A stretch of DNA of 59,173 nucleotides, counting the filler. It is 4 parts of 4 records of this genome, joined end to end, with 100 filler letters (N's around TTAATTAATTAA, not from the genome) between each part and the next. Parts side by side here need not be neighbours in the genome. Positions count along the whole stretch, not along the records: positions 1 to 17,026 come from SRR31147125_7124; 3 more parts are not named here. One strand, 5' to 3'. The notes below the pieces were generated by a model, which was not told the DNA's origin, did not search any database, and saw only the letters and a program-made list of their open reading frames with translations. The translations under genes were made by a program, and so were the position numbers. Of the stretch, positions 1 to 40,301 are shown in pieces (the first letter of the stretch is position 1; each line of letters opens with the position of its first letter).

Positions 1-1
1 T

Positions 2-787
2 TTTTTCAGTAATCGCTTCTAACACACCTATTGTAAGCATATTACCGGAAATGAGTAAAGCGGTAGGGGGATCAGGCAAAGATAAAAGTCTTAAAGTGGA
101 TTCATACCCATCTGCGACTTTGCTGCCAACTCCACATATCAATTCCGGATCATCATCAAGATTAAAAGTATGGATCGCACGTAAATATCCGGATCGTCGT
201 TTTTGTATTGTATAAATATGAGGCCGGCTACTAATAAAACCAATTCTCTTATGACCGGCATTTACAAATTGAGCCACTGCATTAAAAGCAGACTCTTCAT
301 TATCTGTGAGAACGGCATTGGCCTTGATATTTTCAAAATACCGATCAACTAAAACGAGGGGAAAGTTTTTATCCAAAAGTTCAACAATATGTTTTTCCGA
401 ATTTTGCACAGGAGCGATAATAAGCCCATCGATTCCACGACCGATTAAATTCTGGATTAGACTTATTTCCCTATCCTGGTCTTCACCAGTGTTACATACT
501 ACCAGATTATAACCGGCATTAAAACTTTGCATTTCAATACTATGGGCAATACCGGAGAAGAAAGGATTGGAAATATCGGGAAGGATAAGACCAATGGTCA
601 GGGTTTTTTGCAGGCGCAGTGCGCGAGCTACCTGATTTGGATGATAGTCGAGCTCTTTGGCCGCTGTAAAGATACGATTTCGTGTTTTTTCTGACACATG
701 TTGGGCTTCATTCCGACGCAATACTCTGGATACTGTTGAAGGGTGTACCCCAACCTGTTTTGCGATGTCTTTGAGTGTGATTGGCAT
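2..787 (-). CDS. LacI-family transcriptional regulator (3'-truncated at window edge; absent from the ORF track)
   Basis: Manual translation from ATG at 787: MPITLKDIAKQVGVHPSTVSRVL...YHPNQVARALRLQKTLTIGLIFPDISNPFF...VLVDRY. This is a LacI HTH, hinge and periplasmic-binding-like domain, open to the window start. Confidence 0.93.
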   Translation of the reverse strand, partial: MPITLKDIAKQVGVHPSTVSRVLRRNEAQHVSEKTRNRIFTAAKELDYHPNQVARALRLQKTLTIGLILPDISNPFFSGIAHSIEMQSFNAGYNLVVCNTGEDQDREISLIQNLIGRGIDGLIIAPVQNSEKHIVELLDKNFPLVLVDRYFENIKANAVLTDNEESAFNAVAQFVNAGHKRIGFISSRPHIYTIQKRRSGYLRAIHTFNLDDDPELICGVGSKVADGYESTLRLLSLPDPPTALLISGNMLTIGVLEAITEK

Positions 788-816
788 AAATTTGATCTGT
801 TATTTGATATGATAAT

Positions 817-841
817 CCAAACGATTGCCGCAATCGTTTGC
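817..841. promoter_or_regulatory. Putative LacI-family operator(s): perfect 10-bp inverted repeat CAAACGATTG-ccg-CAATCGTTTG
   Basis: Arms at 818-827 and 831-840. Each arm contains an AAnCGnTT LacI-type core. Lies 30 bp upstream of the lacI-family start codon. Confidence 0.65.
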
Positions 842-1008
842 TTTATAAATTATTAAAATATATCATTATTTAATAAAAAAAATAATTTCTCTTTTTATAA
901 ATCCTGTTGAATTGGGGGTGAATACAAATCTTTATCGGGTATTTAAGAAGGCTGATTCGATAGATATCAAACCGATATACTTTAGACTGTTAACCATATA
1001 TAAGAACA

Positions 1009-2094
1009 TTATATTTTTATTTCTCTACACGAACCCCGTACGATAAGGTTCGGATCAAACAACTTTTCTTCAATCATGACACCTTTTTCCGGATTTTCGA
1101 TTTTATCAATGAGAATTGTTGCTGCTTCCCGCCCCATCCTTGTCAATGGTTCTCTGACAGTCGTTAAAGGTGGCCGTGAATAGGGTGCTAACAACACATC
1201 TCCAAATCCAATTACAGAGATATCATCAGGTACGCGTAATCCTTTATTGGCCAATAAATTGATTATATTAATAGCAGTCGGATCATACAAAACAATCAGA
1301 GCGCTCGGTCGGTCTGACAATTGAAGAAAATGATCCAATGTCTTTTCATCATCGTCAGGGTGGTTGGGATTATAAAATATCAGATCTTTATCTAATTCCA
1401 CACCATGTTCATTCAGGGTAGCAGAAATACTTTTCAATCGTTCCTGACTGCTCCAGGATCGCTCTCCCCTGGCAATGACTCCAATTCGCCGATGGCCAAG
1501 AGACAGTAAATACTCAGTAGCGATCCTGCCACCTTGCTCATTATTAACACCTATCATATCCCCATCAACATTGTTCACCTTTCGCCACAAAAACACATAA
1601 GCCATGTCCCTTTCCGAAAGTTCTTGGACTTTATGAACCAATGTAGTGTCAGGATAATCACTGGTAAAAAACAAAATCCCATCAACGTGACGATCGGCAA
1701 TCAGATGAGCATAAGATTCAGACAATCGGGGATCTGAAATAACATCTTCATTAAATACCATGAGGTTGTAATTTCTCTTCTGAGCAACCTCTGCTATGCC
1801 GGTCATGACTCCAAAAGAAAAAGCACTATCAAACAATTCTAACGGTTTTTGTGTGATAATACCAATAGTAAAAGACCGATCCATGGAAAAGGAACGTGCG
1901 AGTCGATTGGGTGCATAATTGAGTTCTTGTGCTACCTCAATGACCCGTTTTTTTGTTTCCTCACTGATCTTGATGGGACTACGACGATTATTAAGCACAA
2001 TAGACACCGTCGCTTTACTCACACCGGCTTTTAGCGCAATATCGACCAGCGTTGGAGTTCGAAAAGCTTTCTTTTTCAGTCCTGAATTCGTCAC
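1009..2094 (-). CDS. LacI-family transcriptional regulator
   Basis: TLVDIALKAGVSKATVSIVLN HTH, YAPNRLARS hinge, VPDDISVIGFGD...PPLTTVREP C-terminal motifs. Confidence 0.95.
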   Translation of the reverse strand: MTNSGLKKKAFRTPTLVDIALKAGVSKATVSIVLNNRRSPIKISEETKKRVIEVAQELNYAPNRLARSFSMDRSFTIGIITQKPLELFDSAFSFGVMTGIAEVAQKRNYNLMVFNEDVISDPRLSESYAHLIADRHVDGILFFTSDYPDTTLVHKVQELSERDMAYVFLWRKVNNVDGDMIGVNNEQGGRIATEYLLSLGHRRIGVIARGERSWSSQERLKSISATLNEHGVELDKDLIFYNPNHPDDDEKTLDHFLQLSDRPSALIVLYDPTAINIINLLANKGLRVPDDISVIGFGDVLLAPYSRPPLTTVREPLTRMGREAATILIDKIENPEKGVMIEEKLFDPNLIVRGSCREIKI

Positions 2095-2557
2095 GATAAA
2101 TCTTATATTAGAATGAGAACACTACATTATTCAGGCAAAACACTTTTTACAGATAAATAACGAAGAGAATGGATAAATTTAAAAAAATGACTCATATATA
2201 TTAAAAGTCACTACTTAAAGCGATCAAAATTTGACCAGATCACCTAACCCAGTTAATTTAATATGAAAATTTACTACATTAATGTCAAGAAAAAAACAAT
2301 TAATCCATTTTTTTCAACTTGGGCTCGAAGTTCAACTATTCGAATCATTTTTACGCTTTTAATATCCTTTATGGTCATAAAAGTTATGTAAATCCGGATA
2401 ACACCATTTAGTAACGGAATTCGGTAAACAGGTCTATTAACTATTGAGATAAATATGCCCCGGGGATTTCAGAACCCTTTTTGTGATAGCCCCATTCTAA
2501 AAAGATCATGGATCGATTCATTTTCATTCTAAAAAAAGCAATAAAGTGAATCCCCTA

Positions 2558-3658
2558 TTATTCATAAACACCAAACTCATCAACAATTTCACTGACTCTC
2601 CTTACTCTAGTCTCAAGACCATCCGGTGGAACCTGATCGGCCACACCAAGCACAAAACCGGGTTCTTTTCTCATGACAGTCAGGACGTGTTTTACATGAC
2701 ATTCAAATTCGTCCTCAGAAACGGAAGGAGTGAAATAAGAACCGGGAATTCCTCCCAAAAAACGCTTTTCGTATCTCCGGTATAGGCTTTCCACTCTTCA
2801 ATCGCCAGGTCCCCGACGGGTTTGGGAGTTAACGCCTCCAGAACGGAAAAACCCACGGAACTTTCTTCCCTTAACAGAGCCTTCAAGGTCCCATCCATAT
2901 GTATAAAGGAATATTTTCCGCTTTGATTTATTTTCCGGGTCCATTTTTCCTGATAGCTTCGCATGAACTGTTGAAAAAAACGAGCCCACCACTTCTGCTG
3001 ACAGGTTTTCCGGGATCATTAGCGCTTCTGCCGGGCTATCCACAGCAATCTGCGCTGCCACATCATGTGAGTTTTCCATTATTTGCATTGTTTCGGTAAA
3101 CTCGTCTGTATAAAACAAGGCTAAAAGGGTTACTGTTTCAATACCTGCCTCGAGTGCTACCAACTGCATAAAAGGACTTTTGGGTAGATAATCAAGGACA
3201 ATCCCTATATCACCTACCTGCTCCAAACGGTTTTCTATGAATTTATAATTCGGCTCATAATAACTGTGTTCATGAACATAAGACAAAGCAGGAAGATCTT
3301 GAATGGATTTCACCAGGTATTCAATTGGTGCTTCGGTAAAAGAATCAGCCATCCATTGCCAGCACTCCCTTAGAGTTCCTTTGGGAGTTTCTATTTTTCT
3401 GTACCTTTTATTCCCTTGTTGCCAGGTTTTAACCTGACAATTATCAATAATCGTCGTAAAAGGGAAATCACCCTGCAAATAAAAACCAACTTTTAACTCG
3501 CGATGCCAATCGATATAAGCCTTTGTCTTTTTAAAATCAGCAGGACACTCTCCTCGTTGAATGCGTGCCGTTGCCCAGTAATCAAGATCACCAAACCATG
3601 GAACACGATCCGGTTTTTCTCCTCTCAATATACAAAAAACTCGTTCACGTGGCGTCAT
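2558..3658 (-). CDS. Uroporphyrinogen decarboxylase/MtaA-CmuA superfamily protein #1 (two apparent frameshifts, near 2974-2980 and 2754-2756)
   Basis: ORFs 2798-3658, 2692-2964 and 2558-2794 join into one protein: MTPRERVF..GEKPDRVPW / FIHMDG..LEALTPKPVGD / FWGGIPG..FVLGVADQVPPD. The breaks fall at or next to homopolymer runs. Confidence 0.8.
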
Positions 3659-3772
3659 GTAAACCTCAAAATTACAATTTTTTAATCATCTTTATACAAT
3701 CAGTAACTTAGATACGTCAGGTTTAGCAAATATTCCTTATTAAATAGGTCCAAGATCAAGTACAAAAAGCTC

Positions 3773-4804
3773 TCAACTCTTTTGTATCTTTTCCCATTCT
3801 TCAAATATAGCAATCGCCGTATCCGGATTCGCGCCAGCACCGAACTCAAATTGGGCAATGAGTCCTCCGGCAGGATCATAAAGATGCTTTGTCACTTTTT
3901 GTACGGCATCGCGGCCTAATTGTGGATCCCGGGACACCAAAACATGTTGTCGATCAATCTCTCCCCAAAAAGTCATTTTACCTTTGACACGCCTGGCAAT
4001 CTCGTTCATGTCCATGCAAAATAGTTGTGAATTTATTGCATTCACGCCAATATTAGCCAAATCCTCATAAATATCCAAAATAAAACCATCCGAATGCATG
4101 AAAACATATTTATTATTCGCATGAGCCAAATCACAATAATCCTGGTATAATGGCATGAATAAATCCTGCCACATCATCGGAGAAATCAATAACTGGTTTT
4201 GAGAACCCCAGTCATCCATAAACATAATCCCATCCACGTCTGTCGACACCCAAAATTCCAGTTCCTTTAGATAAAAATCATGCACAAGTTTGAGAAGATC
4301 ACGACCACCTTCATCCGGCATCATCATATCGATCATGGCATTTGACGTACCGCGTAAAAACTGATAGCGTTCCCATGGTCTGGGGCAACAGGATGCCAGG
4401 ATAAATTTGTCTGACTGCGCGCAAAATCGATTCACTTTATCACGCGCTTCCTGCACATTATCGGGCAATGTTTCATAAGGTGGTTTTACCTGTTTCCAGT
4501 CCGCGATATCTGTTATTTGGGGAATCCGAACTTCGCCTATGATACCATCCTGAATATTAATAAAAGTGCAACCCCACTCATCCACATAAGTTCCCACCTT
4601 ATACTCATCACCTTTAACACGAGAAGAGGGTTGGTAGACGTTGCCAGCATTACAGATATCATTGGGAAAACGACGATTTATTTCTTCTACTGTTTCCGGG
4701 TAATGACTCTGTGCCCATGGCAACACCCATAAATGTCTTGGCATTCGCTCAGGAAAATTAAAATTCAGACATCTCTGCACAATGTCACGAGAAGTTTGAG
4801 CCAT
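3773..4804 (-). CDS. URO-D/MtaA-CmuA superfamily protein #2
   Basis: YVDEWGC, FLRGTSNAMIDM, FMDDWGSQ, MHSDG and FWGEIDRQ motifs. Confidence 0.88.
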   Translation of the reverse strand: MAQTSRDIVQRCLNFNFPERMPRHLWVLPWAQSHYPETVEEINRRFPNDICNAGNVYQPSSRVKGDEYKVGTYVDEWGCTFINIQDGIIGEVRIPQITDIADWKQVKPPYETLPDNVQEARDKVNRFCAQSDKFILASCCPRPWERYQFLRGTSNAMIDMMMPDEGGRDLLKLVHDFYLKELEFWVSTDVDGIMFMDDWGSQNQLLISPMMWQDLFMPLYQDYCDLAHANNKYVFMHSDGFILDIYEDLANIGVNAINSQLFCMDMNEIARRVKGKMTFWGEIDRQHVLVSRDPQLGRDAVQKVTKHLYDPAGGLIAQFEFGAGANPDTAIAIFEEWEKIQKS

Positions 4805-4897
4805 AGTATCCTCACCTCTTTTGAAAAGTCACGTAATGACGATTATCAGACTAATTTAGCCTACACTTCTATTCCGGTAAAACTTGATATCAGTAAA

Positions 4898-5644
4898 TTA
4901 CTTTTCAGCTTTAAATTCGCCCTGAAATTTGAATTCCTTAATATGCTGCAAAAATTTTGCTTCGTTTTCCACCAGGTCCTCAAAGGTCACACCTTGTTTG
5001 CGACAGACAGAGATCACATATTCTAATTCGGCTCTGTCATAAAAACTACAGACATTATCCAATTGTTCGGCAGCCTCCGGTGGTATGGTAATAAAACCAT
5101 GATGGTCGGCATGGATTAACTCGCCTGTTTTTATTTCACAGCCAAAGACATTCACCGGGCAGTCAAAATCAACGACTTTTCCATAAGCAGGAGCAACACA
5201 CAATCGACGGGCAAGGGCTTTAAAACCGGCATTTTTCATTTCATGCAAATCCCGGATGGCACCATCTGTAATCGTACCGACACATCCAAATGGCTTGTGT
5301 TTATTTGCATTGCATTCACCCCAGAAGGAGCCAACAATACCATCCGGGGCATCCAGATCATGAATTACCACAATTTTGGGATCTGGTAAAGAAATCATCC
5401 ATTTAAAATACTCCATAAAATCAACTGATTGCTCCAGATGTTCCTGGCTGGCCTGATATTTAACTGTGACAGCATAACCGCACATGGCGCCCATTTCCGG
5501 CATATAATCAACTGTCGGATCCAGATTAAATCCTTCTGTTTTTTTACGCTTACTTAATACACCCATGGAATTAGCAATTGTGGGAGAATTATGTCGGGTT
5601 AGTGTTTTTATCTGTCCACGGCTCAGATTATATAGCGAAAACAT
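4898..5644 (-). CDS. RraA-like / HMG-CHA aldolase family protein
   Basis: SPTIANSM, GYAVTV, FWGECNA, ITDGAIRD (conserved R-D) and GELIHADHHG motifs. Confidence 0.85.
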   Translation of the reverse strand: MFSLYNLSRGQIKTLTRHNSPTIANSMGVLSKRKKTEGFNLDPTVDYMPEMGAMCGYAVTVKYQASQEHLEQSVDFMEYFKWMISLPDPKIVVIHDLDAPDGIVGSFWGECNANKHKPFGCVGTITDGAIRDLHEMKNAGFKALARRLCVAPAYGKVVDFDCPVNVFGCEIKTGELIHADHHGFITIPPEAAEQLDNVCSFYDRAELEYVISVCRKQGVTFEDLVENEAKFLQHIKEFKFQGEFKAEK

Positions 5645-5715
5645 ATTCGTATTCTTTCATATAAAAATATTCACAATTTATTACATTTATAATCCAAATG
5701 CAAAAAACCCATACT

Positions 5716-6798
5716 TTATTGTCTGTATTCACTCGCCGTGTCAAACATGGCCACCACATTCTCTGTAGGAATATCGGCCTCCAATTGGTGACTGGCAGCA
5801 ACAATATAACCGCCACCCTCTCCCAAAACAGACAAACATTCTTTTGTTTCCTTTACAACATCGTCCACAGAGCCAAAAACCAGGGCCTTTTGCTGATCAA
5901 CAGAACCGTGAAAAACAAGTCGCGAACCAAACTCTTTATTCAATCGTTTTCGATCCATTCCATAGGCATGGGTTTGTATTGGATTCAATACATCTACGCC
6001 AGATTGAATAATATCCTCTATGACAGGATAAATCCCACCACAGCAATGCATCATAACCTTTGTTCCATAACTTTTAAATAAATCTGCCCGTTCACGAATG
6101 AGCGGCATCATGTACTCCCGACACATGTCCGGTGACATGAGCAATCCCTTTTGTCCGCCCAAATCATCACAGGTCCACATCAAATCTATGGTTCCTTCAG
6201 CTGCTTCAAGCACCAAACGTCCATATTCGAGCCAATAATCACACACTTTGCGCAGGAGAGCATGCACAAAATCCGGATTGATGGCCATATCCATCATAAA
6301 ATTCTCAAGGCCTCGTAATCGCCAGGCATCATCAAATACAGCGGATGTTTTGCCGGCAATGGCCATACCTTTATGTTTAAGAGCCTGCTTTTTGATTGCG
6401 GAAAAATCCCAGTCCTCAGCAGGATTGGGCCATGGCCACTCTTCAAGATCTTTAACGGTTTTCAGGTTTTTTAAAGGGAAATCAACGACATCATAAAAAA
6501 TATCTCCTGAAGGAAAGATCGTCTTTTGCCATGTAATCCCCCAATTGTCGATAAACCGGTTCTGATCGATTTGTTTCGGGAACCAATGACCATAATAATT
6601 ACCGAATCCGGCAGTTTGCATAACAGGTCTGATAGTGACAATATCAGATCCGAACCGCTCTCTCAATCCATTAACATCGATCAGACCTAAATCACTTATG
6701 AGCCTCTCCTCCATAACCCTTGTGCACTGCACATCTATGGGCACTCTGTCTACAGATTCCCTGGCAATCGTTGCCATCACACGTTCCCGGCTTGTCAT
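5716..6798 (-). CDS. URO-D/MtaA-CmuA superfamily protein #3
   Basis: MTSRERVMATIARESVDRVP, LRGLENFMMD, CDDLGGQ, MHCCG, LNPIQ, FHGSVDQQ and GGYIVAASHQL motifs. Confidence 0.9.
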   Translation of the reverse strand: MTSRERVMATIARESVDRVPIDVQCTRVMEERLISDLGLIDVNGLRERFGSDIVTIRPVMQTAGFGNYYGHWFPKQIDQNRFIDNWGITWQKTIFPSGDIFYDVVDFPLKNLKTVKDLEEWPWPNPAEDWDFSAIKKQALKHKGMAIAGKTSAVFDDAWRLRGLENFMMDMAINPDFVHALLRKVCDYWLEYGRLVLEAAEGTIDLMWTCDDLGGQKGLLMSPDMCREYMMPLIRERADLFKSYGTKVMMHCCGGIYPVIEDIIQSGVDVLNPIQTHAYGMDRKRLNKEFGSRLVFHGSVDQQKALVFGSVDDVVKETKECLSVLGEGGGYIVAASHQLEADIPTENVVAMFDTASEYRQ

Positions 6799-6838
6799 AT
6801 AACAACTCCTTATATAAAATCACATTAACATTTTAATC

Positions 6839-7921
6839 CTATTCGCATTTTTCACGGCGTCTAATTTCTTTTACTGCATCGATCATCGCATAGTAACCTT
6901 CAGGAGGAATATATTTGGCAATAGAATTGCCCGATCCTAATGCAAATCCATTAGCTTTTTTTCTAAACGATGTTCCTTTTTCAAGGACCTGCTTAAAGAT
7001 ATCATCATATGTTTCCAGACAAAGTGTATTCACATCGATTCCGCCTAACAAACCTATCTGGCCACTATAAAGTCTTATCCATTTATCAAATGGGGCAATT
7101 CCATCTTCATTCGAATGTTTGGCATCTATGCCCAATTCAACAAGATCGTTCATAACTTCAAATATATTACCGCAAGAATGCAGTAAAAATTTCTTACCTG
7201 AATTGTGAATCAAATCTACTATTCGTTTGTATTGTGGAAAAAGATACTTTCGATATGTATCCGGTGCCAGCAATGTGGCTGATTTAAAACCCAGATCATC
7301 CCCCATTCTAAAAATAATGAATATATCGCTGTATTCTTTTATGACCTTTGACCAGAGTGTGACATATAAATCCCCGATTTTCTTATACAGGTCAGAAAAA
7401 AGTTCAGGATCCATGTATTGCATAACACAGAGGGATTCAAATCCAACAAGGTCTTCACTTGACTCAAAAATACCTAAACCGCATCCTCCTATGGCTTTCA
7501 TGCCCTGGGGCAAAATGGCACGTATCGCATCAAAATGTGGCTTGTATTTTTCCCAGAAAATAGTTGGTAATTCATCAAATGGATATTTATTAAAGTCATC
7601 TCTCGTCTGGATAGGACCAAGCTTACCTCCCATTATGGCCCCGTGATCAGGATAGATATCATAAATGGATGCTTCATATGAAAAAGTATCGTAGGTCATA
7701 TCTTTCCAAAAACCACACATATTTGTATAATATTCTTCCAGGTCAACCGGTTTGTTCCCTTGCAATACCAGTTCTTTACCACCAGCTTTAGATATAAACG
7801 GCACATCAATAATGTGTTCATATAAGGGTAATCGTTTTGGTCGTTTATTGTAAACAACATCGAGCATATTCCTGTAATCAGGTTCAAATTTTTGTGAATG
7901 TTTCAAATTTTTACTCCTCAT
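6839..7921 (-). CDS. URO-D/MtaA-CmuA superfamily protein #4
   Basis: PKRLPLYEH, LVGFESLC, MGDDLGFKS, LHSCG, KHSNED, LLGGIDV and FALGSGNSI motifs. Confidence 0.88.
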   Translation of the reverse strand: MRSKNLKHSQKFEPDYRNMLDVVYNKRPKRLPLYEHIIDVPFISKAGGKELVLQGNKPVDLEEYYTNMCGFWKDMTYDTFSYEASIYDIYPDHGAIMGGKLGPIQTRDDFNKYPFDELPTIFWEKYKPHFDAIRAILPQGMKAIGGCGLGIFESSEDLVGFESLCVMQYMDPELFSDLYKKIGDLYVTLWSKVIKEYSDIFIIFRMGDDLGFKSATLLAPDTYRKYLFPQYKRIVDLIHNSGKKFLLHSCGNIFEVMNDLVELGIDAKHSNEDGIAPFDKWIRLYSGQIGLLGGIDVNTLCLETYDDIFKQVLEKGTSFRKKANGFALGSGNSIAKYIPPEGYYAMIDAVKEIRRREKCE

Positions 7922-8032
7922 AAAAAAAATATAATAACAGCAGAAACTTGATAATCTGTCATTGCAAAATCATCAACAATCCTGTTCCAAAAATCAGTAG
8001 TTCGTTCAAATAAGGTTTATTTTAACTCAACA

Positions 8033-9757
8033 TCAGGCAGTCGGTAATCGTTTGTACCAGGTAAAATATAAAATTCCGGCCGTGATACAAGTCGTAAGTA
8101 AAAGTGCTGCAAAAGTCCAGATATGATGTATCATAATATAAACAACAGACATATAAGCGCTGGCAATGGCTACCATACCTAAAAAAGCATTCAAAAGATC
8201 AAGCGAAAACAGATCGGTCTTTTTAAAGTTCGGAAAAAGGGCAATTGTTTTTCGATGAACAGGTTTCCAGAACATGCCTGGTTGTACATGTCTGTAAAAA
8301 TCAATAAGCAACTTTTCATCAACGGGTTTTGTCACCAGTGTGGCAATAACACTGATAACAAGGGATGAAAATGCAATAACCGGAAAATAGATTTGAAATG
8401 GAGCATCCCTCCAAAAAAACGACTGTACCAATGACATCAGCGTACCAGCCAGAGTTCCTGCTGTAAAACCCCAGCCATTAAACCGCCACCAGTACCATCG
8501 TAGCACATTTGGAAGCAGAACACCGGCACCCAAAGCCAGCATAAGCCAGTTCCAGATATCGGCTATGGAACGGGCATTCATACCAACCACAACGCCGCCA
8601 ATAATTATCAATGCTGAACAGGAATAACTGGCAATCATCTGTCTTTTTGCAGTTGGTGTTGTGTCGATATATTTCTCATAGATATCTTTGACAAGGTAAG
8701 AGGCTCCTGCGTTCACTACGGAATTAAATGTACCCATAAAGGAGGAAAAGAGAGCACCTAAAAACATGCCGCGAATACCAATGGGGAAATAATTGCGGAT
8801 AACCACTGGCATAGCCTTTTCCGGATCGGTGATAAGATGCTGAAAATGCACGATAGCCACAACAGCAATCCCGATTGTCATCGCCCAGCGGACGAGAAGA
8901 AAAACACTCCACATACCGCCGATTTTACAGGCATCTGCGGCCGTAGGTGCTGAGAGAAAACGCTGGAAATCAAACAATTGCGCCGGACCACCGGCATTCA
9001 GGAGTAAGCCTTTTGTAACCCAGACAATGACCAATACACCAAAGAGAGAATAAGGTGTATTCTGTAAATATGAAATTTTCCATTCCGGGATCATTGAAAA
9101 CCAGCCTTCCGGCACTTTAGTCGCTAACACAGCCAAACTGGAATCATTAAACATGATCACACAAACAACAATACAGGCAATGGTAATGAGGATTGTTTGT
9201 GCAACATCTGTCACAATGACACTCACGAAACCTCCGGGAATAACATACAGGGCAACAAGCCCCATAAGGATCATGGCGCACACACTTTCCGGCAATGGTA
9301 CAAACTGGGAAGCGAATTTTCCGATTCCTTCAAATGCATAACCAAGAGCACCAATGGTATAAATAATGGCTAAAATGGTATAAGCCAACCGGGCCATTTC
9401 CCCGGCTCTGTCATCGCCAAAGCGGGTCTTCATCCATTCTGCGGCTGTGAACACTTTGGAGCGTTGGACCCATTTACCTGTATACGTCATAAAAAACGCA
9501 CCCATCATAAATCCCCACATCCAGTGAACCCACATACTGCGCAGACCAATAAGGACAAACAGAGATACGATCCACATCGTACCAGTTACATCAAAAGTGG
9601 AAACACTCCCGGACATGGAAAGAAAGAGCCATGGGACTTTGCGGCCTCCAAGAAAATATTGTTCTTCATTTCGTTTTGCTCTCAATTGATAGATAAAACC
9701 AATACTCACAACCAGCACCAGATAGATAACAATAATACCGTAATCAAGACCTACCAC
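8033..9757 (-). CDS. Sodium:solute symporter (SSS) family transporter
   Basis: About 14 hydrophobic segments; YFLGGRKVPW, TAAEWMKTRFG, FQRFLSA, SYLVKDIY and RWYWWRFNGWG motifs. Confidence 0.93.
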   Translation of the reverse strand: MVGLDYGIIVIYLVLVVSIGFIYQLRAKRNEEQYFLGGRKVPWLFLSMSGSVSTFDVTGTMWIVSLFVLIGLRSMWVHWMWGFMMGAFFMTYTGKWVQRSKVFTAAEWMKTRFGDDRAGEMARLAYTILAIIYTIGALGYAFEGIGKFASQFVPLPESVCAMILMGLVALYVIPGGFVSVIVTDVAQTILITIACIVVCVIMFNDSSLAVLATKVPEGWFSMIPEWKISYLQNTPYSLFGVLVIVWVTKGLLLNAGGPAQLFDFQRFLSAPTAADACKIGGMWSVFLLVRWAMTIGIAVVAIVHFQHLITDPEKAMPVVIRNYFPIGIRGMFLGALFSSFMGTFNSVVNAGASYLVKDIYEKYIDTTPTAKRQMIASYSCSALIIIGGVVVGMNARSIADIWNWLMLALGAGVLLPNVLRWYWWRFNGWGFTAGTLAGTLMSLVQSFFWRDAPFQIYFPVIAFSSLVISVIATLVTKPVDEKLLIDFYRHVQPGMFWKPVHRKTIALFPNFKKTDLFSLDLLNAFLGMVAIASAYMSVVYIMIHHIWTFAALLLTTCITAGILYFTWYKRLPTA

Positions 9758-9909
9758 GCGATTCTCCTTCCTTGCCCAAATCGTACTATCGACACTGTTT
9801 TACATATCTGCTATTTAATTACACCTGTCCATCACAAAAAATCCGGTTTTTCTTTTTTTAATAATCAGTCATCTTTAAGATCGAGAAGGACCGTCCAACC
9901 TTTATTCAT

Positions 9910-11154
9910 TTAACAACATCCATTAACTGCCCGAAACATGGCGACAATATTCTCAGGTGGAACGTTAGCCATAATGTTATGCACTTGCTGAAATACAAAA
10001 CCCCCTCTTTGATTCATAATATTTATCTGCTGTTTCACATGCTTTTCCACCTGCTCCGGAGAGGCATTTCCCAGGATATCCCGGGTATCGCACCCGCCTC
10101 CCCAAAAAGTCACTTTATTTCCATACTCTTGTTTTAATTCCGTTGAATTCATTCCTTCTGACGTTATCTGAACAGGATTGAAAGCGTCCATTCCAGCGTC
10201 AATCAGGTCATCAAGTATAGGCCGGATACCGCCGCAGCTATGGAGTTGTACTTTGACATTTGCTAATTCTTTGGTACGACGCCATAGCCTGGCATGATAC
10301 GGTTTATAATACTTGCGATACATCTCGGGTGAAAACAGCGGCCCATTTTGCCCTCCAAGGTCCTCACCACCGAACAGAACAATATCAATATATGGACCAA
10401 CAGCTCCAAGCCACTTTTCCAGATTATCAAGATACATGGATGTCAACTTTTCTGAAAGACGGTGTATGGCATCCGGATATAGCGCCATATACATCAGATA
10501 ATTTTCATTACGATGCAAGTACTGAGGTACCTCAAAAATACTTCCACCAAATAATCCGATGATAGCTCTGTCCGTTGAGAGCCGTAACTTTTGCGCTTTT
10601 TTCGCCATCTCAGCCAAACCCTCTTCTGTGAGTGACAGATGCGCTCCGGGGTGGACGACTTTAGTCCACATACAATTGTCAAAGTGTTCTTCTAAATCTT
10701 CAAAATCATTACATTCAAATTCAGAATCAGCCATTGGATAATGAGTCTGTTCAAAATAGAGACATCCCTGTTTTTGTACACCTAATTCAAAACCATTATC
10801 ATTCAGCAGGAACCAATCTGCACCTCTTTTTTCCATATGAATGTAATACGGGATCTGGCAGGGCGTGCCATCAGGTAAAATCCAGTCCTGCCAATCCCTA
10901 TCGTCTGTTAAAAAACCGCGTCCCATCTCTATGGTGTCGACGCCGAACAAATCAAGAATATCATTATCAACAATGGCCAATTGTTGAATAACATCGTAGA
11001 CGCGAATGGGCTTTTGCGGCATATTAAGATATTGTCTCAATTTTGCATAGGCAATTGCAGATATACCGGACGACCTGTGACCGGAAAAATCAACAGGAAC
11101 ACGATCAGATTGTTGGTGTTCCATTGCAGATAATATTCGTTCTCTGGAATTCAT
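9910..11154 (-). CDS. URO-D/MtaA-CmuA superfamily protein #5
   Basis: MNSRERILSAMEHQQSDRVPVD, GEDLGGQ, LHSCG, FNPVQ, FWGGGCDT and FVFQQVHNI motifs. Confidence 0.9.
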   Translation of the reverse strand: MNSRERILSAMEHQQSDRVPVDFSGHRSSGISAIAYAKLRQYLNMPQKPIRVYDVIQQLAIVDNDILDLFGVDTIEMGRGFLTDDRDWQDWILPDGTPCQIPYYIHMEKRGADWFLLNDNGFELGVQKQGCLYFEQTHYPMADSEFECNDFEDLEEHFDNCMWTKVVHPGAHLSLTEEGLAEMAKKAQKLRLSTDRAIIGLFGGSIFEVPQYLHRNENYLMYMALYPDAIHRLSEKLTSMYLDNLEKWLGAVGPYIDIVLFGGEDLGGQNGPLFSPEMYRKYYKPYHARLWRRTKELANVKVQLHSCGGIRPILDDLIDAGMDAFNPVQITSEGMNSTELKQEYGNKVTFWGGGCDTRDILGNASPEQVEKHVKQQINIMNQRGGFVFQQVHNIMANVPPENIVAMFRAVNGCC

Positions 11155-11362
11155 ATTTTTAATCCCTTAACATTAAAATCGAGACATCATTAAACCAAAT
11201 GCATTTTTTTATCGAACTTTCAAGACACAATAGTTTTTGAATTGACCATTTTCATGAACTATAATTTAGCAGTATTGATATTTTAAACAAATTGAAAAAT
11301 ATCATTTATCAAGCTATACGATTTTTTCTGACAGAACTGATTTTCCCAAAGAGCGAGGTAAA

Positions 11363-13645
11363 TCATTCAGAAATATCTGTACTAAAATCAAGTATCCTAT
11401 CAGGATCTATCACACTGAGATACATCCCCCAACCACCGCCTATCTGATCCACCTTTACCAGCACTTTATTCCAGCCTTTTTTCAGCGTCACGTTCAACAT
11501 ATCCGTATTGGGCGTGGCTTTTCGTAAAACGATTTTGTTATGAATAATTTTGTCATTCAAATAAACACGAACACCATCATTGCTACCTATTCCCAGCTGA
11601 GTTGAAATCTCTTTTGGCGACTTTATATAACACAGTCCATAGGCAACACCGAGACTATCGGGATCAAAAGCTTTGGTGAAATCAACATACAAGCCGTCAT
11701 TCTCAGTCCAATCCTGCCAGGCGACTTTTACCCCACCCACGCCACGATATGCTTTGCTGTAATCGATCTCACTTTCAGGAGGCTGAATCGTTTTTAATAA
11801 TTCTGCTTTTGGCGCCTCAAATGGACCGATAATTTTCAGGTGACGAACAAACCGGCAATCGGAGGACAAGGTTTGCAAAAACGAGGTCATTTTTGAACGC
11901 TCGGATTGGTAAATAATGCCATTTTTTGCCACAAGCTCGTTAAATATAGCCAGCATCTCCTGATCCACAGATACCTGATTCTGAATTTGATCCTGTCCCT
12001 GAAACCAGAGGTCAGCATAGTAAACAGGCAGATGTGCCTTTTGTACCCTGGACAGAATTTCCGGATCTTTTGCTACCATTTTTTCAGCTTTTTCAAAATA
12101 ACCGTGTGCCTTTGTGAAAAACTCTGGCGTCAGATAACCTCCGTCATCAGGATTTGAAAATAGATTGAAATGAATATCCGAATTTTTGACGAGATTGTGC
12201 ATCATATCAAAATAATCCCGCATCGGACCTGCTGCTTTTCCGTAAACACCTTGAAAAAAATCATCGATAACCTCATCCACGTTAACTGAAGGATTCCACA
12301 GCATTTTTGCCAGCACGTATGAGCGCAGTTCTGCATTTTCAGCTCCACCACCTTGAGGTGATCCTCCCTGACAAAACACTCCGGATATACCTTCTTTATA
12401 ATAGAAAGGAATGTCTTTGCGAATTGCATTAAAATTAGGAAAAGGCACCAAATAATGGCTAAAATCGGTAACATAATGCCAGACATACATCTTGCCGCCT
12501 TTTTTTCGCCAGGCACGCAAGTGCTTGACATAATCGGCATTCTTCTCGCATTCGGTCAAGGGATGCGCATCACAGGATGGCTGCATATGGCAAAGTCGAA
12601 TAATGACATTATCCCTGACTTTGAGTGTTTTTGGTGGTTTTTGCGTATACGTATATGCAAATGTATCGAATAGCTTGTCCGGATATTTTTCACCCAAGGC
12701 CTCAGCAATGGCATTGACAAACGTCACGACTGTGGCAGAATGGCTGCCCTCTTTTTCATCCAGCGCCTTGCACTTGTCACATTCACACCAGTCTTCCCAG
12801 TCATTTTGCGTGATCGAAATAATCTTTGCATCCGGTTCTTCTTTGATCCATTTTTCAATTTCTTTTATGGCCACCTTTAAAACATCAGGATTGCTGAGAC
12901 ATATCTGACCCCGGTTATTCACCCGCTTTCCATTGACCAGGGAGAAATATTCCGGATACTTTTTGAAATACTTTTCCGGTGGTACCAGAGCATAAAAAGT
13001 ATGGCCCAGGTATCCTTTGGCATATTTTACTTTACCACCAACCTCCGGAGGTAAATCAGCCCCATAGCCATTTATCTTATTATGAGTGGCCCATGTACGA
13101 TCAAATGCCTCGGTAAAAAAGGTCATTCGATATTCAAAGGCGGGTTTCTGCCAATCATTGATCGCAGGAACAGAAAGTATTTTCTGTTCAGGAATCCTGA
13201 AAACGTCAGAGGTGTACCAGCGACAGTCAGCATATTTTTCCAAAAAGGTAAAAACGCCATACATGGTACCACGCTTTTGTCCACCAATAATAAATAAATC
13301 CTCACCAATCGTTCGAATGAGAAACTCTTCATCTCCCAGGGATGTGATATCCACATCGTTTATCATCTGATCTGTTAATTTATTCTGGCCGATAAAGATT
13401 CTATGTGCCGCAGGTGTCTTTGCATCGGTAACAAGTGGTAAAACGCATCCACTCATTTTATTCACGGTTTGTTGAAATTCTTCAGCCGCATATCGTTCGG
13501 ATGGCGATGCGGATTCGGATAGAACAATGGTGTAATCACTTTTTCCATTTTCAACGATTATTATCTTTGCTTTTTGCATGCATGAGAAAGAGAAAAATAA
13601 CAAGAACATCAGCCAAACAGCAATCGTCTTTTTAAAAAAAGTCAT
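11363..13645 (-). CDS. DUF4838-domain lipoprotein (GH67N-like N-terminal domain; C-terminal PA14-like beta-sandwich)
   Basis: Signal with FSFSC lipobox; EEFLIRT..IIGG..RGTMYGVFTFLE; GHTF, QICLSNP, WCECDKC, FAYTYT; C-terminal GIGSNDGVRVYLN..LKKGWNKVLVKV. Confidence 0.8.
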   Translation of the reverse strand: MTFFKKTIAVWLMFLLFFSFSCMQKAKIIIVENGKSDYTIVLSESASPSERYAAEEFQQTVNKMSGCVLPLVTDAKTPAAHRIFIGQNKLTDQMINDVDITSLGDEEFLIRTIGEDLFIIGGQKRGTMYGVFTFLEKYADCRWYTSDVFRIPEQKILSVPAINDWQKPAFEYRMTFFTEAFDRTWATHNKINGYGADLPPEVGGKVKYAKGYLGHTFYALVPPEKYFKKYPEYFSLVNGKRVNNRGQICLSNPDVLKVAIKEIEKWIKEEPDAKIISITQNDWEDWCECDKCKALDEKEGSHSATVVTFVNAIAEALGEKYPDKLFDTFAYTYTQKPPKTLKVRDNVIIRLCHMQPSCDAHPLTECEKNADYVKHLRAWRKKGGKMYVWHYVTDFSHYLVPFPNFNAIRKDIPFYYKEGISGVFCQGGSPQGGGAENAELRSYVLAKMLWNPSVNVDEVIDDFFQGVYGKAAGPMRDYFDMMHNLVKNSDIHFNLFSNPDDGGYLTPEFFTKAHGYFEKAEKMVAKDPEILSRVQKAHLPVYYADLWFQGQDQIQNQVSVDQEMLAIFNELVAKNGIIYQSERSKMTSFLQTLSSDCRFVRHLKIIGPFEAPKAELLKTIQPPESEIDYSKAYRGVGGVKVAWQDWTENDGLYVDFTKAFDPDSLGVAYGLCYIKSPKEISTQLGIGSNDGVRVYLNDKIIHNKIVLRKATPNTDMLNVTLKKGWNKVLVKVDQIGGGWGMYLSVIDPDRILDFSTDISE

Positions 13646-13658
13646 ATCACTATCCTTA

Positions 13659-14891
13659 TTATTTAGAATCCGGGTTTGTTAATTCATAGATATGCACATC
13701 AAATGGTTTGTAATCGTCTGTCAATTCGCCTTTTTCAATGGTTGCAGTTCGATTTTCCTTCAATACCGTGGCACTCTTGAATTGACTCAGGCCACTAAGA
13801 GTTACTTTAACAGGATATCGGTCTGCGTTGGCGGTAATCAAATAAGTTTTGCCGTCCACTTGTTTTGCCAAAATCTCAACACCTGCATCTACGGAATAAC
13901 CCAATTCATGATATTGCTTGTTAATTTTCAGATCCATTTTACGGGCAGCCAAAACCGGTTGCATATCACTTAATTCCCTTGTCACTTTTTTAAAGCCAGG
14001 CCAAAAGGAAGCATTCGCAGGTGTATAATGAGTTCCCCAGTAAACAATGCCATTGGCGCCATGAATAACAGCATTATAGGCCATGAATCGGGATTCCTCA
14101 TAGGAGGGATATTGTACCATTTTGGGATCACGATCATTTTCCTTTCTTAGCATCTCCCAGGAAAAGCCCTGCAAAACCATAAACAAGGGTTTGGAAGGAC
14201 CTCCGACTTTTCTCATCTTGTCCGTATACTCGCCCACCTGACTAATATAGGGATTCAGCAAGTCTCCCTGCAGCCCATCCGGGTATAATGCATAAGATAC
14301 ACGTATCCCATGGGGAATCACAGGATAAACATCACAGGCGATAATATCTGTGGATGGATTATATTTCTGCATCGTGGAAACGAGATTTACAGGCGCGTGA
14401 TTGGTATAAACCAGGTGTTCAGGATCTTGTTCTTTTATCAATTTGTACGTCTCAATCAATGGCTCAGGTTTGACCCGTGCTTTTGCTGAATTCCATGTGA
14501 AAGCCGGTTCATCCTGCATTTCCCAGCACAGTAGAGATGGATGATCTTTAAATTTTTGAATGTTTTGTATCAGGCGTTCATGACTTTCCTCGCGTTTATC
14601 CGGATTTAGGGAGCCTATTGAAACCCAGGTGTACAGGTCATGCGCGTAAGCGGCATCCATTTTTTCCTTATCAGCTCCTGTTCGCACATAATTATATCCA
14701 TCTTGTTGCAGCTCAAGCCAGGGATTATCACTTTTTGGAGCATAATAACTACCAATAATGAACGTTCTCTCACCATGGACAACCAGCATACCATCATTAT
14801 CAAATGTAAATTTTTTCATTTCTTTCTGCGGCTGACTACAAGCCGACAAAAAAAGGACCACAGTCATAATTCCAAACAACACTTTACGCAT
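13659..14891 (-). CDS. Lipoprotein with putative glycoside-hydrolase-like TIM barrel (family unassigned)
   Basis: Start MRKVLFG at 14891 follows a GGAGG RBS; LSAC lipobox; HPSLLCWEMQDEP, IIACDVYP and VIHGANGIVYWG motifs. The ORF track starts 12 nt earlier. Confidence 0.6.
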   Translation of the reverse strand: MRKVLFGIMTVVLFLSACSQPQKEMKKFTFDNDGMLVVHGERTFIIGSYYAPKSDNPWLELQQDGYNYVRTGADKEKMDAAYAHDLYTWVSIGSLNPDKREESHERLIQNIQKFKDHPSLLCWEMQDEPAFTWNSAKARVKPEPLIETYKLIKEQDPEHLVYTNHAPVNLVSTMQKYNPSTDIIACDVYPVIPHGIRVSYALYPDGLQGDLLNPYISQVGEYTDKMRKVGGPSKPLFMVLQGFSWEMLRKENDRDPKMVQYPSYEESRFMAYNAVIHGANGIVYWGTHYTPANASFWPGFKKVTRELSDMQPVLAARKMDLKINKQYHELGYSVDAGVEILAKQVDGKTYLITANADRYPVKVTLSGLSQFKSATVLKENRTATIEKGELTDDYKPFDVHIYELTNPDSK

Positions 14892-14956
14892 AACACCCTC
14901 CATTTTTTAAAAGTACCTTTGTTTATAGCTATTCAAATTATCACAACGAAAAGATT

Positions 14957-17026
14957 TTATATCCGAAACAGATATGACATTTTGCCAAAAATCATATAAT
15001 TCTCACGTGAAAAATCTCCACCTGACTGATCACGTAATTCTTTATAGGATACATAAAATGTTGAACCAGCGTGAAATTCATAACCAACTAAAAAATCCAT
15101 CATGTGTGAGTTGCCGTCTATATCCACATTCTGAATAATTCTCGAGTATAATTTCCTGGTAATCTGGTAATGCAAGGAGTTGTAAAAAAATAAATTGTCA
15201 TAAATTACCGCACCACTCTCTTGAAGTTTTTGATGATACCAGTTGGCTGTATTTTTAAACATAATATTTGGCTTTGGCTGAAAGGTAAAGCCACACCCTA
15301 TATTCTGATCCATACCAGCTGCCTGGTCCTGGTAATCATTTATATAGATACCTCCCCCATCACTAAATGAATAACTCAGGTTACCATCAAATATGGATCC
15401 GGTGTTACTGGACAAACTCATGCTCATACTATTACTCTGGAATGTATTCGGATTCCATATTAAACTATTTTTTTTCCGAATTTCCGCTCTGGCAGTTCTA
15501 TTGGTAAAAGAAAGACTGGCATTGATTTTACGTATCAGGCCACATGAAGCATTCACTCCCCAGCTTTTTCCAATATCCAAACCAGCATAGGACCGCGAAT
15601 AATTACCGGAGGAGGTTATGGACAAGGTCTCAATGCCCAATTCAGGAATGTGCCACTTGTACCCCACGTAAAAATTGGGATTTCTATAACCTTTTTGACC
15701 AATAATTCCGGTTTTCGGATCATAACCAGGAGCAATGTCCAGGTAGGTCATATTATAGGTAAAGCCCTCAATCGGTGCGTGAGAGTGGTTGACATAAAAA
15801 AGCGTATTCTCTTTATTATCTGTTGCAGAATTAAAGGTCGAGGAAAATTGAAATTGTAGATGATCCACAGCATCTCTATGAAATTGACCATCAATCGAGA
15901 TATTCCGGTTATACATCACACCATCTTCAATTCCTGAAACCATAAAACCAATTTTAGATGTTTTCAGGATATCTCTTTGTATACGTTCTGTATGTATCAA
16001 ACGGTCTCCACTTTGGTCAGGATTATCCCAGGCATTGATTACACCAATATTCCATGGTCCCTCTTTTCCTGTCAATTTCAGCATGGTTTGCGGATTTTGT
16101 ATCCGCCGACTGTAAAAGAGTGTATAAGGAAGAGAAAAGGTGGCGCCCCCTTCATTAAAAAATGGACGATTTTCAGATAATTGATATTCATAGGGACTGA
16201 AATTAACAAAAAAGGGATCGGATTCCACCTGTGAAAAATCAGGAGCAAATGATGCGTCAAGTGTCAAATTCGTTGCCAAACCAAATTTCGCGTCCAATCC
16301 AAGTGCGGCTTCTTTTTCTTCAAAATCTCTACCTATGGAATGTTTACCGGCACTATAGGGTAAAAACTCGATATTATGTCCTCTCGGCAGGTTTTTTAAA
16401 CCTTTTGCCAAATGAAACATGCTATTATAATCTTCATTATAACGACAATCCAGATAGTTGATCGTCTCTCCTTTTCTGTACACATTACGGCCCAGCTCAT
16501 AACCCCATTCCTGTTCTTTTTCATCCGGGAAACGTAAGGATTTAAAAGGTATCGCCATCTCACCTGTCCATCCCAGACTGTCAATGACCGCACCCGAATA
16601 CCAGATCGTATCAAAAGAATTTTTCTGTACCCCTAGTGGATTGATCTGAAATAAATATTGATCCCGTTTACTGTCATACGTATCCAGGTAAATAAAGACA
16701 TAGTCATTATTCACCCACTGATTACGTGGGGTCAGGGTAGCACGAATTTTGGATGGATCGGAATCATAGCATCGATAGGCCACGTATATATTATTTTTAT
16801 CATAGTATAAATAAGCTATTGTTTTTTCAGTAGGTGTCGCACCGTTTAAAGGAGTATATTGATAAAATTCATCTATACGTATGGCCTCTTTCCACACAGG
16901 ATCATCCAGTTTACCATCAATTTTCACGGATTCAGATATAAAGGGAATCTCATCTTCACCTCTGACAAAGACACGTCCGGATTTTGCTTGTACATTATCA
17001 CATATTATCACAATCAGTATAAAAAA
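14957..17026 (-). CDS. CBM9-like/DUF5916 outer-membrane protein (5'-truncated at contig end)
   Basis: IDGKLDDPVW, YDKNNIYVAYRCYD, EMAIPFKSLRF, PDFSQVESD and ENRPFFNEG motifs; C-terminal beta-barrel ending KMSYLFRI. Confidence 0.85.
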   Translation of the reverse strand, partial: FFILIVIICDNVQAKSGRVFVRGEDEIPFISESVKIDGKLDDPVWKEAIRIDEFYQYTPLNGATPTEKTIAYLYYDKNNIYVAYRCYDSDPSKIRATLTPRNQWVNNDYVFIYLDTYDSKRDQYLFQINPLGVQKNSFDTIWYSGAVIDSLGWTGEMAIPFKSLRFPDEKEQEWGYELGRNVYRKGETINYLDCRYNEDYNSMFHLAKGLKNLPRGHNIEFLPYSAGKHSIGRDFEEKEAALGLDAKFGLATNLTLDASFAPDFSQVESDPFFVNFSPYEYQLSENRPFFNEGGATFSLPYTLFYSRRIQNPQTMLKLTGKEGPWNIGVINAWDNPDQSGDRLIHTERIQRDILKTSKIGFMVSGIEDGVMYNRNISIDGQFHRDAVDHLQFQFSSTFNSATDNKENTLFYVNHSHAPIEGFTYNMTYLDIAPGYDPKTGIIGQKGYRNPNFYVGYKWHIPELGIETLSITSSGNYSRSYAGLDIGKSWGVNASCGLIRKINASLSFTNRTARAEIRKKNSLIWNPNTFQSNSMSMSLSSNTGSIFDGNLSYSFSDGGGIYINDYQDQAAGMDQNIGCGFTFQPKPNIMFKNTANWYHQKLQESGAVIYDNLFFYNSLHYQITRKLYSRIIQNVDIDGNSHMMDFLVGYEFHAGSTFYVSYKELRDQSGGDFSRENYMIFGKMSYLFRI

Positions 17027-17126
17027 NNNNNNNNNNNNNNNNNNNNNNNNNNNNNNNNNNNNNNNNNNNNTTAATTAATTAANNNNNNNNNNNNNNNNNN
17101 NNNNNNNNNNNNNNNNNNNNNNNNNN
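17027..17126. other. Artificial contig linker (N44-TTAATTAATTAA-N44)
   Basis: Spacer with stops in all six frames, flanked by N runs; genes on both sides are truncated. Confidence 0.98.
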
Positions 17127-36527: not shown

Positions 36528-36571
36528 TTTAGATTGTCATTTTATATCAATTGATTGGATGTCAAATTCGA

Positions 36572-40294: not shown

Positions 40295-40301
40295 AAGATA
40301 A

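Follow-up and report, generated by a model that had tools for sequence, protein, structure and literature searches.

The 59,173-nt stretch of DNA analysed here (the window; 4 parts of 4 records joined, positions 1-17,026 being SRR31147125_7124) carries on its minus strand, between positions 2558 and 11154, five paralogous genes of the URO-D family (PF01208), which we call UROD1 to UROD5, interleaved with genes for an RraA/HMG-CHA-aldolase-like protein and a transporter of the SSS (sodium:solute symporter) family. The block is no free-standing LacI operon: it forms the cytoplasmic end of a complete SusC/SusD polysaccharide utilisation locus of Bacteroidota type. The reading that we favour, at about even odds, is that the five paralogues are methyltransferases I, each specific for its substrate, within a corrinoid-dependent O-demethylase acting on methylated sugars, an activity predicted from what is known of the family, the O-type metal sites, the occurrence of relatives in corrinoid clusters, the genomic count of the corrinoid activase RACo and the carbohydrate-related neighbours.

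Sequence family and fold of the URO-D paralogues

UROD1 (9910-11154, 414 aa), UROD2 (6839-7921, 360 aa), UROD3 (5716-6798, 360 aa) and UROD4 (3773-4804, 343 aa) are intact minus-strand genes whose products match the Pfam URO-D model with 91.6 bits (E 6.6e-26), 74.3 bits (1.2e-20), 102.3 bits (3.7e-29) and 53.2 bits (3.1e-14), against a cut-off of 23.9 bits. An earlier inspection of the DNA from its letters alone, hereafter the sequence-only reading, had counted five such co-oriented genes; this holds for the four just listed, but the fifth, UROD5 (2558-3658, minus strand), is not one open frame, being spread in the map of open reading frames (ORFs) over 2798-3658, 2692-2964 and 2558-2794. None of these three pieces matches Pfam even at E 5, and a profile comparison returned weak, collinear matches. 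P0127 is an intact 367-aa relative that is 88% identical over the unshifted part, runs collinear in tblastn with the DNA from 3658 to 2561, its residues ~227-298 matching another frame, and scores 30.9 bits with the URO-D model; since this collinear protein passes the Pfam cut-off, UROD5 can be assigned by homology to the URO-D family, broken as it is in the present assembly. With the first piece of UROD5 as query, 1055 of 2486 candidates were relatives at E<=1e-5, mostly 366-371 aa long; the next best after P0127 share 59-67% identity, and the source labels include Sedimentisphaerales, KSB1, KSB3 and Anaerohalosphaera lusitana.

The mutual dissimilarity of the paralogues, already remarked upon in the sequence-only reading, was borne out by pairwise BLASTP (24-29% identity). 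The closest relatives of UROD3, in other phyla, are 52-66% identical, and those of UROD5 50-67% (P0127 set aside), of UROD4 40-41%, of UROD1 37-39% (33-39% for its relatives in the genomes G104 and G001) and of UROD2 33-35%; the UROD5 subfamily is very conserved, with a mean column identity of 70% over 21 sequences. Each paralogue is thus nearer to relatives in other phyla than to the paralogues of its own locus, so that the five are, to judge from these identities, old subfamilies and not recent duplicates. The usual automatic name of these proteins is 'uroporphyrinogen decarboxylase'.

They also stand apart from the characterised MtaA, CmuA and HemE enzymes, as that reading had supposed. The MtaA/CmuA family model TIGR01463 scores UROD1-4 at 54.2, 47.3, 79.6 and 22.5 bits with a cut-off of 235.4, and the MtaA and MtbA equivalog cut-offs lie at 400 and 600 bits (models TIGR01463, NF040654 and NF041608). 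The HemE model TIGR01464, with a cut-off of 302.95 bits, scores UROD1-3 at 25.9, 17.1 and 21.3 bits and does not match UROD4, and RQAGR, which we take to be the HemE motif on the word of the sequence-only reading and not by comparison with a reference, occurs in none of the five proteins, as had been claimed, and nowhere in a six-frame translation of the window.

The URO-D fold is supported by PF01208 for UROD1-4 and the intact UROD5 orthologue, and by structural models whose top matches are MtaA and HemE. The AF2 model of UROD3 (pLDDT 94.2) has MtaA (4ay7) as its first Foldseek match (E 1.3e-17, TM 0.70, 20% identity; best HemE E 3.7e-14), and that of the UROD5 orthologue (pLDDT 94) matches MtaA and HemE about equally, with TM ~0.6. 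By sequence, MtaA 4ay7 is likewise the best Protein Data Bank (PDB) match of UROD3 (E 4e-8), UROD2 (E 0.0067, with HSCGN opposite the HICGN of MtaA) and the UROD5 family profile (E 0.03), that of UROD1 being CdmB 9rui (E 7.7e-4); UROD4 has no PDB sequence match at E<=0.1, and its search of the ESM Atlas returned URO-D clusters alone.

Metal-site columns

The columns corresponding to the MtaA zinc ligands were read from an alignment (A5) of 15 sequences, with more added by hmmalign and the zinc columns anchored through a pairwise alignment to 4ay7. They read H-C-H in UROD1 and UROD3, H-C-N in UROD2, H-D-E in UROD4 and H-D-D in the intact UROD5 orthologue. In alignment A1 of 20 UROD3 orthologues H251, C253 and H337 are invariant, as are H254, D256 and D342 in the UROD5 family (21 members). 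The His-Cys-Cys zinc triad of S-methyltransferases occurs in none of the five; it is found in the MtaA-like genes lying directly beside corrinoid proteins in Planctomycetota (H-C-C, e.g. in G001). According to the part of a preprint available to us, S-methyltransferases of the UroD superfamily have His-Cys-Cys, and in the O-methyltransferases one or both cysteines are replaced by Glu/Asp or by non-ligands (PMC10418091). UROD4 (D, E) and UROD5 (D, D) have other residues in place of both cysteines, UROD1 and UROD3 (each with His) and UROD2 (with Asn) in place of one. The columns therefore fit the description of O-methyltransferases, with metal binding being putative.

A polysaccharide utilisation locus ending in the URO-D block

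All genes spanning 2-29571 lie on the minus strand with short gaps. In the order in which they are read, Pfam identifies an ECF sigma factor (27010-27630), a FecR anti-sigma factor (25931-26914), SusC (22437-25847), SusD (20788-22425), SusE (19597-20736), a GH76 enzyme of the alpha-1,6-mannanase family (18461-19519, E 8.5e-46), a LamG protein (17075-18355), a CBM9/DUF5916 protein (14957-17011; SRR31147125_7124 ends between this gene and the former), a GH2_C-like barrel (13659-14903, a marginal 21.7 vs 21 bits) and a DUF4838 glycoside hydrolase with a GH67N/GH20b-like N-domain (11363-13645, E 3.1e-100), and then UROD1. This gene order, with the SusC/SusD pair, SusE, GH76, DUF4838 and the ECF sigma/FecR pair on one strand, is what makes the URO-D block the cytoplasmic end of a polysaccharide utilisation locus. 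The carbohydrate-associated envelope proteins that the sequence-only reading had seen upstream are thus present, as components of a larger and fuller system than it described.

Between UROD1 and UROD2 lies the SSS transporter (8033-9757, minus strand, 574 aa; Pfam SSF 80.5 bits, E 1.5e-22), which among the NCBIfam models matches the 'sss' superfamily model alone, under every equivalog cut-off, and is the presumed inner-membrane importer of the released sugar or sugars. The RraA-like gene (4898-5644, minus strand, 248 aa; PF03737 68.2 bits, E 1.2e-18, cut-off 24.5 bits) separates UROD3 from UROD4; this interleaving is as first described. Two LacI-family regulators follow downstream, again as described: a complete one at 1009-2094 (LacI and Peripla_BP_3) and one truncated at the window edge at 2-787 (LacI and Peripla_BP_1), both on the minus strand and 27% identical to each other in BLASTP. 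A LacI-controlled route for a modified sugar or sugar acid had been proposed from this arrangement. Uptake and degradation of a modified sugar remains the best description, to which the ECF sigma/anti-sigma pair adds a further control; nothing points specifically to a sugar acid.

The N-termini of the five URO-D proteins have no hydrophobic leader as judged by eye, and we therefore take these proteins as cytoplasmic. A terminator scan of 1-14000 revealed no clear intergenic terminator within the URO-D block, and the sigma-70 promoter count over the same interval was not above that of shuffled sequences, a scan that is uninformative for Bacteroidota.

Corrinoid systems among relatives of the URO-D proteins

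Loci around relatives of UROD3 were collected from genomes (9) and metagenomes (80), 50 of the 89 being at least 5 kb long. One of them, L039, holds a corrinoid protein, in a series made of a GH2 gene of beta-mannosidase type, a URO-D gene with H-C-H columns (32% identical to UROD3), a URO-D gene with H-C-E, the corrinoid protein, a sulfatase and a URO-D gene with H-C-D. Three further loci place relatives in or near corrinoid systems. L124 contains a homocysteine S-methyltransferase domain encoded on its own, a corrinoid protein, a URO-D gene with H-C-H (31% identical to UROD3, E 5e-58), another with H-D-H (33% to UROD3) and RACo; in L127 a URO-D gene with H-C-N (31% identical to UROD2, sharing the motifs LHSCGN and LGSGNS) is oriented divergently to a neighbouring corrinoid cluster comprising methylenetetrahydrofolate reductase (MTHFR), a pterin-binding enzyme, an amidohydrolase, the corrinoid protein, DUF1638 and RACo; and L126 combines a corrinoid protein, DUF1638, a gene of the MTTB family and four URO-D genes, 48 kb away from the UROD4 and UROD5 orthologues on the same G094 contig. 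The linkage with a corrinoid protein, an activase and a methyltransferase II is thus seen for relatives 31-33% identical to the window proteins (L039, L124, L127). The stretch 5648-13883 of L124 (G012:C21:11000-26500) has the look of a dismantled methionine synthase with new methyl donors.

The flanks of 18 MtaC-like genes from URO-D-rich Planctomycetota were inspected; nine of them include URO-D genes, and a recurrent core has the corrinoid gene between two H-C-C URO-D genes: L090 (G001:C123), L123 (G100:C50), L129 (G009:C140) and L131 (G049:C15). Such a corrinoid and H-C-C module often lies near RACo in other genomes as well (G065:C5, G090:C97, G035:C1, G115:C7 and G042:C71). At 11523-13670 of L125 (G049:C54), 5 kb from a corrinoid protein, a 715-aa frame with a URO-D match and H-D-H columns is ~2x the usual length; it may be a fusion or, the DNA being high in GC, a frame called too long.

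Three metagenome-assembled genomes with UROD3 relatives (G001-G003) have 68, 39 and 20 URO-D matches, and each encodes small MtaC-like proteins and the RACo activase. The places matched by PF01208 and PF02310 never coincide in these three genomes, the sole comparison made for a fused URO-D and B12-binding protein. Among 121 Planctomycetota genomes RACo is present in 41, including all 17 with at least 10 URO-D matches (matches per genome being scored up to 15; Fisher p = 7e-10, ignoring kinship and a likely tie to anaerobiosis); among 14 control genomes it was found in Methanosarcina alone. In 14 of 16 further URO-D-rich genomes, 1-2 MtaC-like proteins face 13-54 URO-D candidates, which gives, as far as gene counts can tell, a pattern of few carriers and many methyltransferases. 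Of the two options left by the sequence-only reading, these loci and genomes lend comparative support to O-demethylation in which the gene of the corrinoid protein lies elsewhere.

A proposed route and what weighs against it

In the route that we favour, the SusC/SusD locus with its GH76 enzyme and DUF4838 hydrolase would degrade a mannan- or N-glycan-type glycan bearing O-methyl sugars, and the SSS transporter would bring in the methylated mono- or oligosaccharides. Each paralogue would then handle one kind of methyl sugar, its presumed divalent metal site (His + Cys/Asp + His/Asn/Glu/Asp) polarising the methoxy oxygen, and the methyl group would pass to the cob(I)amide of a corrinoid protein whose gene lies elsewhere, from which a separate methyltransferase II would hand it to tetrahydrofolate or homocysteine, the demethylated sugar entering central metabolism. 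Leaving aside HemE, epoxide CoM transferase and MetE, the members of the UroD superfamily named in the parts available of two papers are corrinoid methyltransferases (PMC10418091, PMC13222342). Five divergent paralogues in one locus would also suit one chemistry on several substrates better than five successive steps.

As to the substrate, DUF4838 is the catalytic domain of GH163 and of GH185, and the founding GH163 enzyme cuts GlcNAc-beta1,2-Man in N-glycans, according to the portion of the source at hand (PMC10570127). O-methylated mannose is described as common on microalgal oligomannosidic N-glycans in the accessible part of another (PMC6344472). The GH76/DUF4838 context would point to O-methyl-mannose as the substrate. 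It is tempting to speculate further, with somewhat less confidence than we place in the methyltransferase reading itself and a little short of an even chance, on a hub-and-spoke, cobamide-dependent sugar O-demethylase in anaerobic glycan degraders, where 1-2 corrinoid carriers, an activase and an acceptor enzyme would serve dozens of URO-D-fold methyltransferases I, and where the five found here, including the UROD4/UROD5 pair with its all-oxygen/nitrogen sites (H-D-E and H-D-D), would demethylate O-methyl-mannose-type sugars from methylated mannan or microalgal-type N-glycans.

A number of results weigh against this proposal. The window lacks a corrinoid partner: an MtaC-like hidden Markov model (HMM) built from 13 proteins found no match in its six frames, Pfam identified no B12-binding (PF02310), PF02607, RACo or haem-pathway family among its 42 ORFs, no methyltransferase II was found in the 59 kb and an Rfam scan returned no family, hence no cobalamin riboswitch. 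The absence of a visible corrinoid protein, activator or haem gene reported in the sequence-only reading is thereby upheld, and the nearby cognate corrinoid protein by which MtaA and CmuA would be recognised has no counterpart here. With one corrinoid protein in 89 loci, linkage is also rare among the UROD3 relatives, and the corrinoid-linked ones, at just 31-33% identity, are therefore not orthologues; no corrinoid gene lies in the fetched flanks (at most 10 kb on each side) of the closest UROD3 orthologues (53-59%) or of the UROD4/UROD5 module of G094. Most URO-D genes in the genomes examined are not beside corrinoid genes, those adjoining a corrinoid protein numbering 2 of 68, 0 of 39 and 3 of 20 in G001-G003. 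The control genome of Bacteroides thetaiotaomicron has no RACo match. The association with RACo may mirror common ancestry or an anaerobic way of life. The Wood-Ljungdahl pathway also employs RACo, which could have that role in the 11 of 19 URO-D-rich genomes that have an acetyl-CoA synthase, an explanation that does not extend to the other 8, where RACo is present with no acetyl-CoA synthase match. The fold of UROD5 fails to separate MtaA from HemE in Foldseek, and the RraA-like gene has no place in the mechanism.

Some of these observations speak for the main alternative, which we consider unlikely: that the URO-D barrel acts on imported sugars or sugar acids by corrinoid-independent chemistry (metal-dependent decarboxylation, isomerisation/epimerisation or hydrolysis), with the RraA-like aldolase in the same route. 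Most URO-D genes stand away from corrinoid genes, the operons of orthologues also contain genes for kinases, aldolases, lactonase-type amidohydrolases and oxidoreductases, a setting that would suit a catabolic step, and RraA-like orthologues occupy sugar loci that lack URO-D genes. HemE, on the same fold, decarboxylates without a cofactor, which shows the fold capable of it, and UROD5 is structurally level between HemE and MtaA. Against this, the HemE cut-offs are far off and RQAGR is missing, five homologous enzymes for five steps in one locus would be unusual, the same metal-site classes are found inside the complete corrinoid systems of relatives, and every genome with at least 10 URO-D matches has RACo. 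Nor do the available parts of PMC10418091 and PMC13222342 describe for PF01208 any activity other than those of HemE and the methyltransferases.

It is improbable that the five are corrinoid methyltransferases for methyl donors other than sugars (methoxylated aromatics, methylamines or methyl-sulfur compounds, for instance) and owe their position in a glycan locus to co-regulation or chance. All characterised methyltransferase-I members named in the parts available of PMC10418091 and PMC13222342 do act on aromatic methyl ethers, haloalkanes or methyl-sulfur compounds, and L126 and L071 pair URO-D genes with genes of the MTTB family. This is countered by the recurrence of sugar-catabolic neighbours over many independent loci and phyla, by the location of the genes, on one strand and with short gaps, among a sugar-type SSS importer, LacI regulators and glycoside hydrolases, and by the absence from all five of the His-Cys-Cys site of S-methyltransferases.

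The two frameshifts of UROD5 could mark it as the first visible casualty of a decaying, non-functional block, a very remote prospect, as the other four URO-D genes and the RraA-like and SSS genes are intact, both shifts fall at homopolymer runs (T7 and T6), the out-of-frame middle piece remains well conserved and the 88%-identical relative is whole. We lean towards homopolymer sequencing or assembly errors (or a very recent break) rather than decay, because a GT2 glycosyltransferase gene of the window is likewise broken up near an A6 run (frames 35735-36343 and 36271-36654, which overlap), itself suggestive of such errors. Another split gene may lie at 40302-41662, where a 153-aa ORF without Pfam match overlaps the start of a 315-aa ORF that matches the C-terminal part alone of the AMP-binding profile (positions 263-374 of 384).

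Conservation of the gene combination and the RraA-like gene

The sequence-only reading had made its proposal depend in part on the gene combination recurring in other genomes. The whole combination is repeated in none of the 89 loci; partial matches consist of scattered second URO-D genes, DUF4838 (L080), LacI (L022, L052), an RraA-like gene (L071) and SSS (L074). A supposed DUF4838 gene in L049, so labelled by BLAST, was rejected as Pfam assigns it to DUF2961. What does recur is a part: G094, a Planctomycetota genome (GC 61%), has in order a UROD4 orthologue (40%), a UROD5 orthologue (51%), a 189-aa ORF and a UROD3-like gene (32%), followed by a Kelch protein, a regulator of GntR/periplasmic-binding type and another URO-D gene. 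The UROD4-UROD5 tandem is thus, on present alignments, conserved in another phylum. Near-identical proteins were also found for UROD3 (94%), the RraA-like protein (97%) and UROD5 (88%), and the longest listed contig is of 13274 bases for all three, which suggests that one close relative with the same gene order is behind them.

The neighbours of URO-D relatives are mostly carbohydrate genes by Pfam (GH2, GH4, GH5, GH29, GH32, DUF4838, DUF2961, BNR, sulfatases, LamG), accompanied by PfkB and FGGY kinases, DHDPS-type aldolases, ABC and SSS transporters and LacI and GntR regulators. In L003 (CAZHPE010000001.1, 5858-9718) a UROD3 orthologue (56%) has just upstream of it the genes of a RuBisCO-like protein, a class II aldolase and an FGGY kinase.

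The RraA-like protein stays under all NCBIfam cut-offs (e.g. PRK09262, 34 vs 179) and belongs to a large family (6343 proteins at E<=1e-20). Its orthologues (42-49%) adjoin GH29 with PfkB and ROK, GH2 with a sulfatase and Amidohydro_2, or DHDPS with BNR, and three of them in Planctomycetota have no URO-D gene in the fetched flanks of up to ~10 kb on each side. Since these orthologues sit in sugar loci without URO-D neighbours, the gene is, by its contexts, a sugar-locus gene in its own right with a conjectural tie to the URO-D genes. P0251 and P0185 (each listed with a contig of 27576 bases and the same taxon label) are a possible, unconfirmed case of RraA–URO-D co-occurrence on one KSB1 contig. 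As a candidate role, the protein is possibly a class II pyruvate aldolase or a decarboxylase for a sugar-derived keto acid.

Other features of the window

On the plus strand, 34709-51489 holds a cluster for surface-polysaccharide synthesis (FemAB/GNAT-like, GT2, several GT4, Wzy_C ligase-like, DUF362, asparagine synthase, Polysacc_synt flippase and acyltransferase). The interval 50000-56703 is low in GC (0.28-0.31 vs ~0.39 elsewhere) and looks like an acquired island; a 1269-aa ORF without Pfam family (51877-55686) is directly followed there by a DUF4280-domain protein (55687-56703).

Relation to known systems and significance

The window proteins share the URO-D barrel and a cytoplasmic location with MtvB, OdmB, VdmB, MtoB and CdmB (PDB 9rui), methyltransferases I of the superfamily from corrinoid-dependent O-demethylases and dehalogenases, and, as described for the O-methyltransferases, the zinc cysteines are replaced by carboxylates or other residues. 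As with these enzymes, genes for relatives of the window proteins share operons with those of a corrinoid protein, an activase and a methyltransferase II, whereas the window itself has none of the three nearby. The similarity to this group is marginal (UROD1, E 7.7e-4; none for the others), and the setting differs as well, a Bacteroidota glycan locus against an acetogen or methanogen methylotrophy operon, with presumed methyl-sugar substrates in place of aromatic ethers and haloalkanes. The MtaA/MtbA/MtsA group (4ay7/4ay8) supplies the best structural match of UROD3 and, by sequence, the first PDB entry for UROD2, UROD3 and the UROD5 family, an H-x-C/D motif standing opposite the H-I-C of MtaA; yet the window proteins score 22-80 bits where 235 are needed and have neither His-Cys-Cys nor a coenzyme M context, and the true MtaA-like H-C-C genes of the genomes compared form a separate pair beside the corrinoid protein. 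With HemE the fold is common (Foldseek TM 0.6-0.7), but TIGR01464 scores are at most 26 bits against 303, RQAGR is absent and there are no haem-pathway neighbours.

Methyl ethers on sugars, such as the 6-O-methyl-galactose of porphyran and the 3-O- and 3,6-di-O-methyl-mannose of microalgal N-glycans, block ordinary glycosidases and catabolic enzymes. In marine Bacteroidota, cytochrome P450 sugar O-demethylases act on the 6-O-methyl-galactose of porphyran, according to the available parts of two reports (PMC6292453, PMC9400963). The role proposed here would be alike, namely the removal of a methyl ether from a sugar freed by a polysaccharide utilisation locus; the P450 route needs oxygen, releases formaldehyde and uses an unrelated fold, whereas the proposed system would be oxygen-free and pass the methyl group to a cobamide. 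Our literature search found no account of URO-D-family genes within polysaccharide loci or of sugar demethylation by anaerobes, and no described enzyme for oxygen-free sugar demethylation, the sole described route in the material it reached being that of the P450 enzymes (PMC6292453, PMC9400963).

If the proposal is true, the URO-D block would do without oxygen what the P450 sugar demethylases do with it, channelling sugar methyl groups into folate or methionine metabolism, and a function would be at hand for thousands of proteins automatically named 'uroporphyrinogen decarboxylase', of which some genomes hold up to ~70 copies. Four intact enzymes with different metal-site variants, beside a presumed importer, make the window a compact test set. 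Glycan breakdown would moreover be tied to cobamide supply, and methylated glycans would constitute an additional source of C1 units in anoxic sediments and guts.

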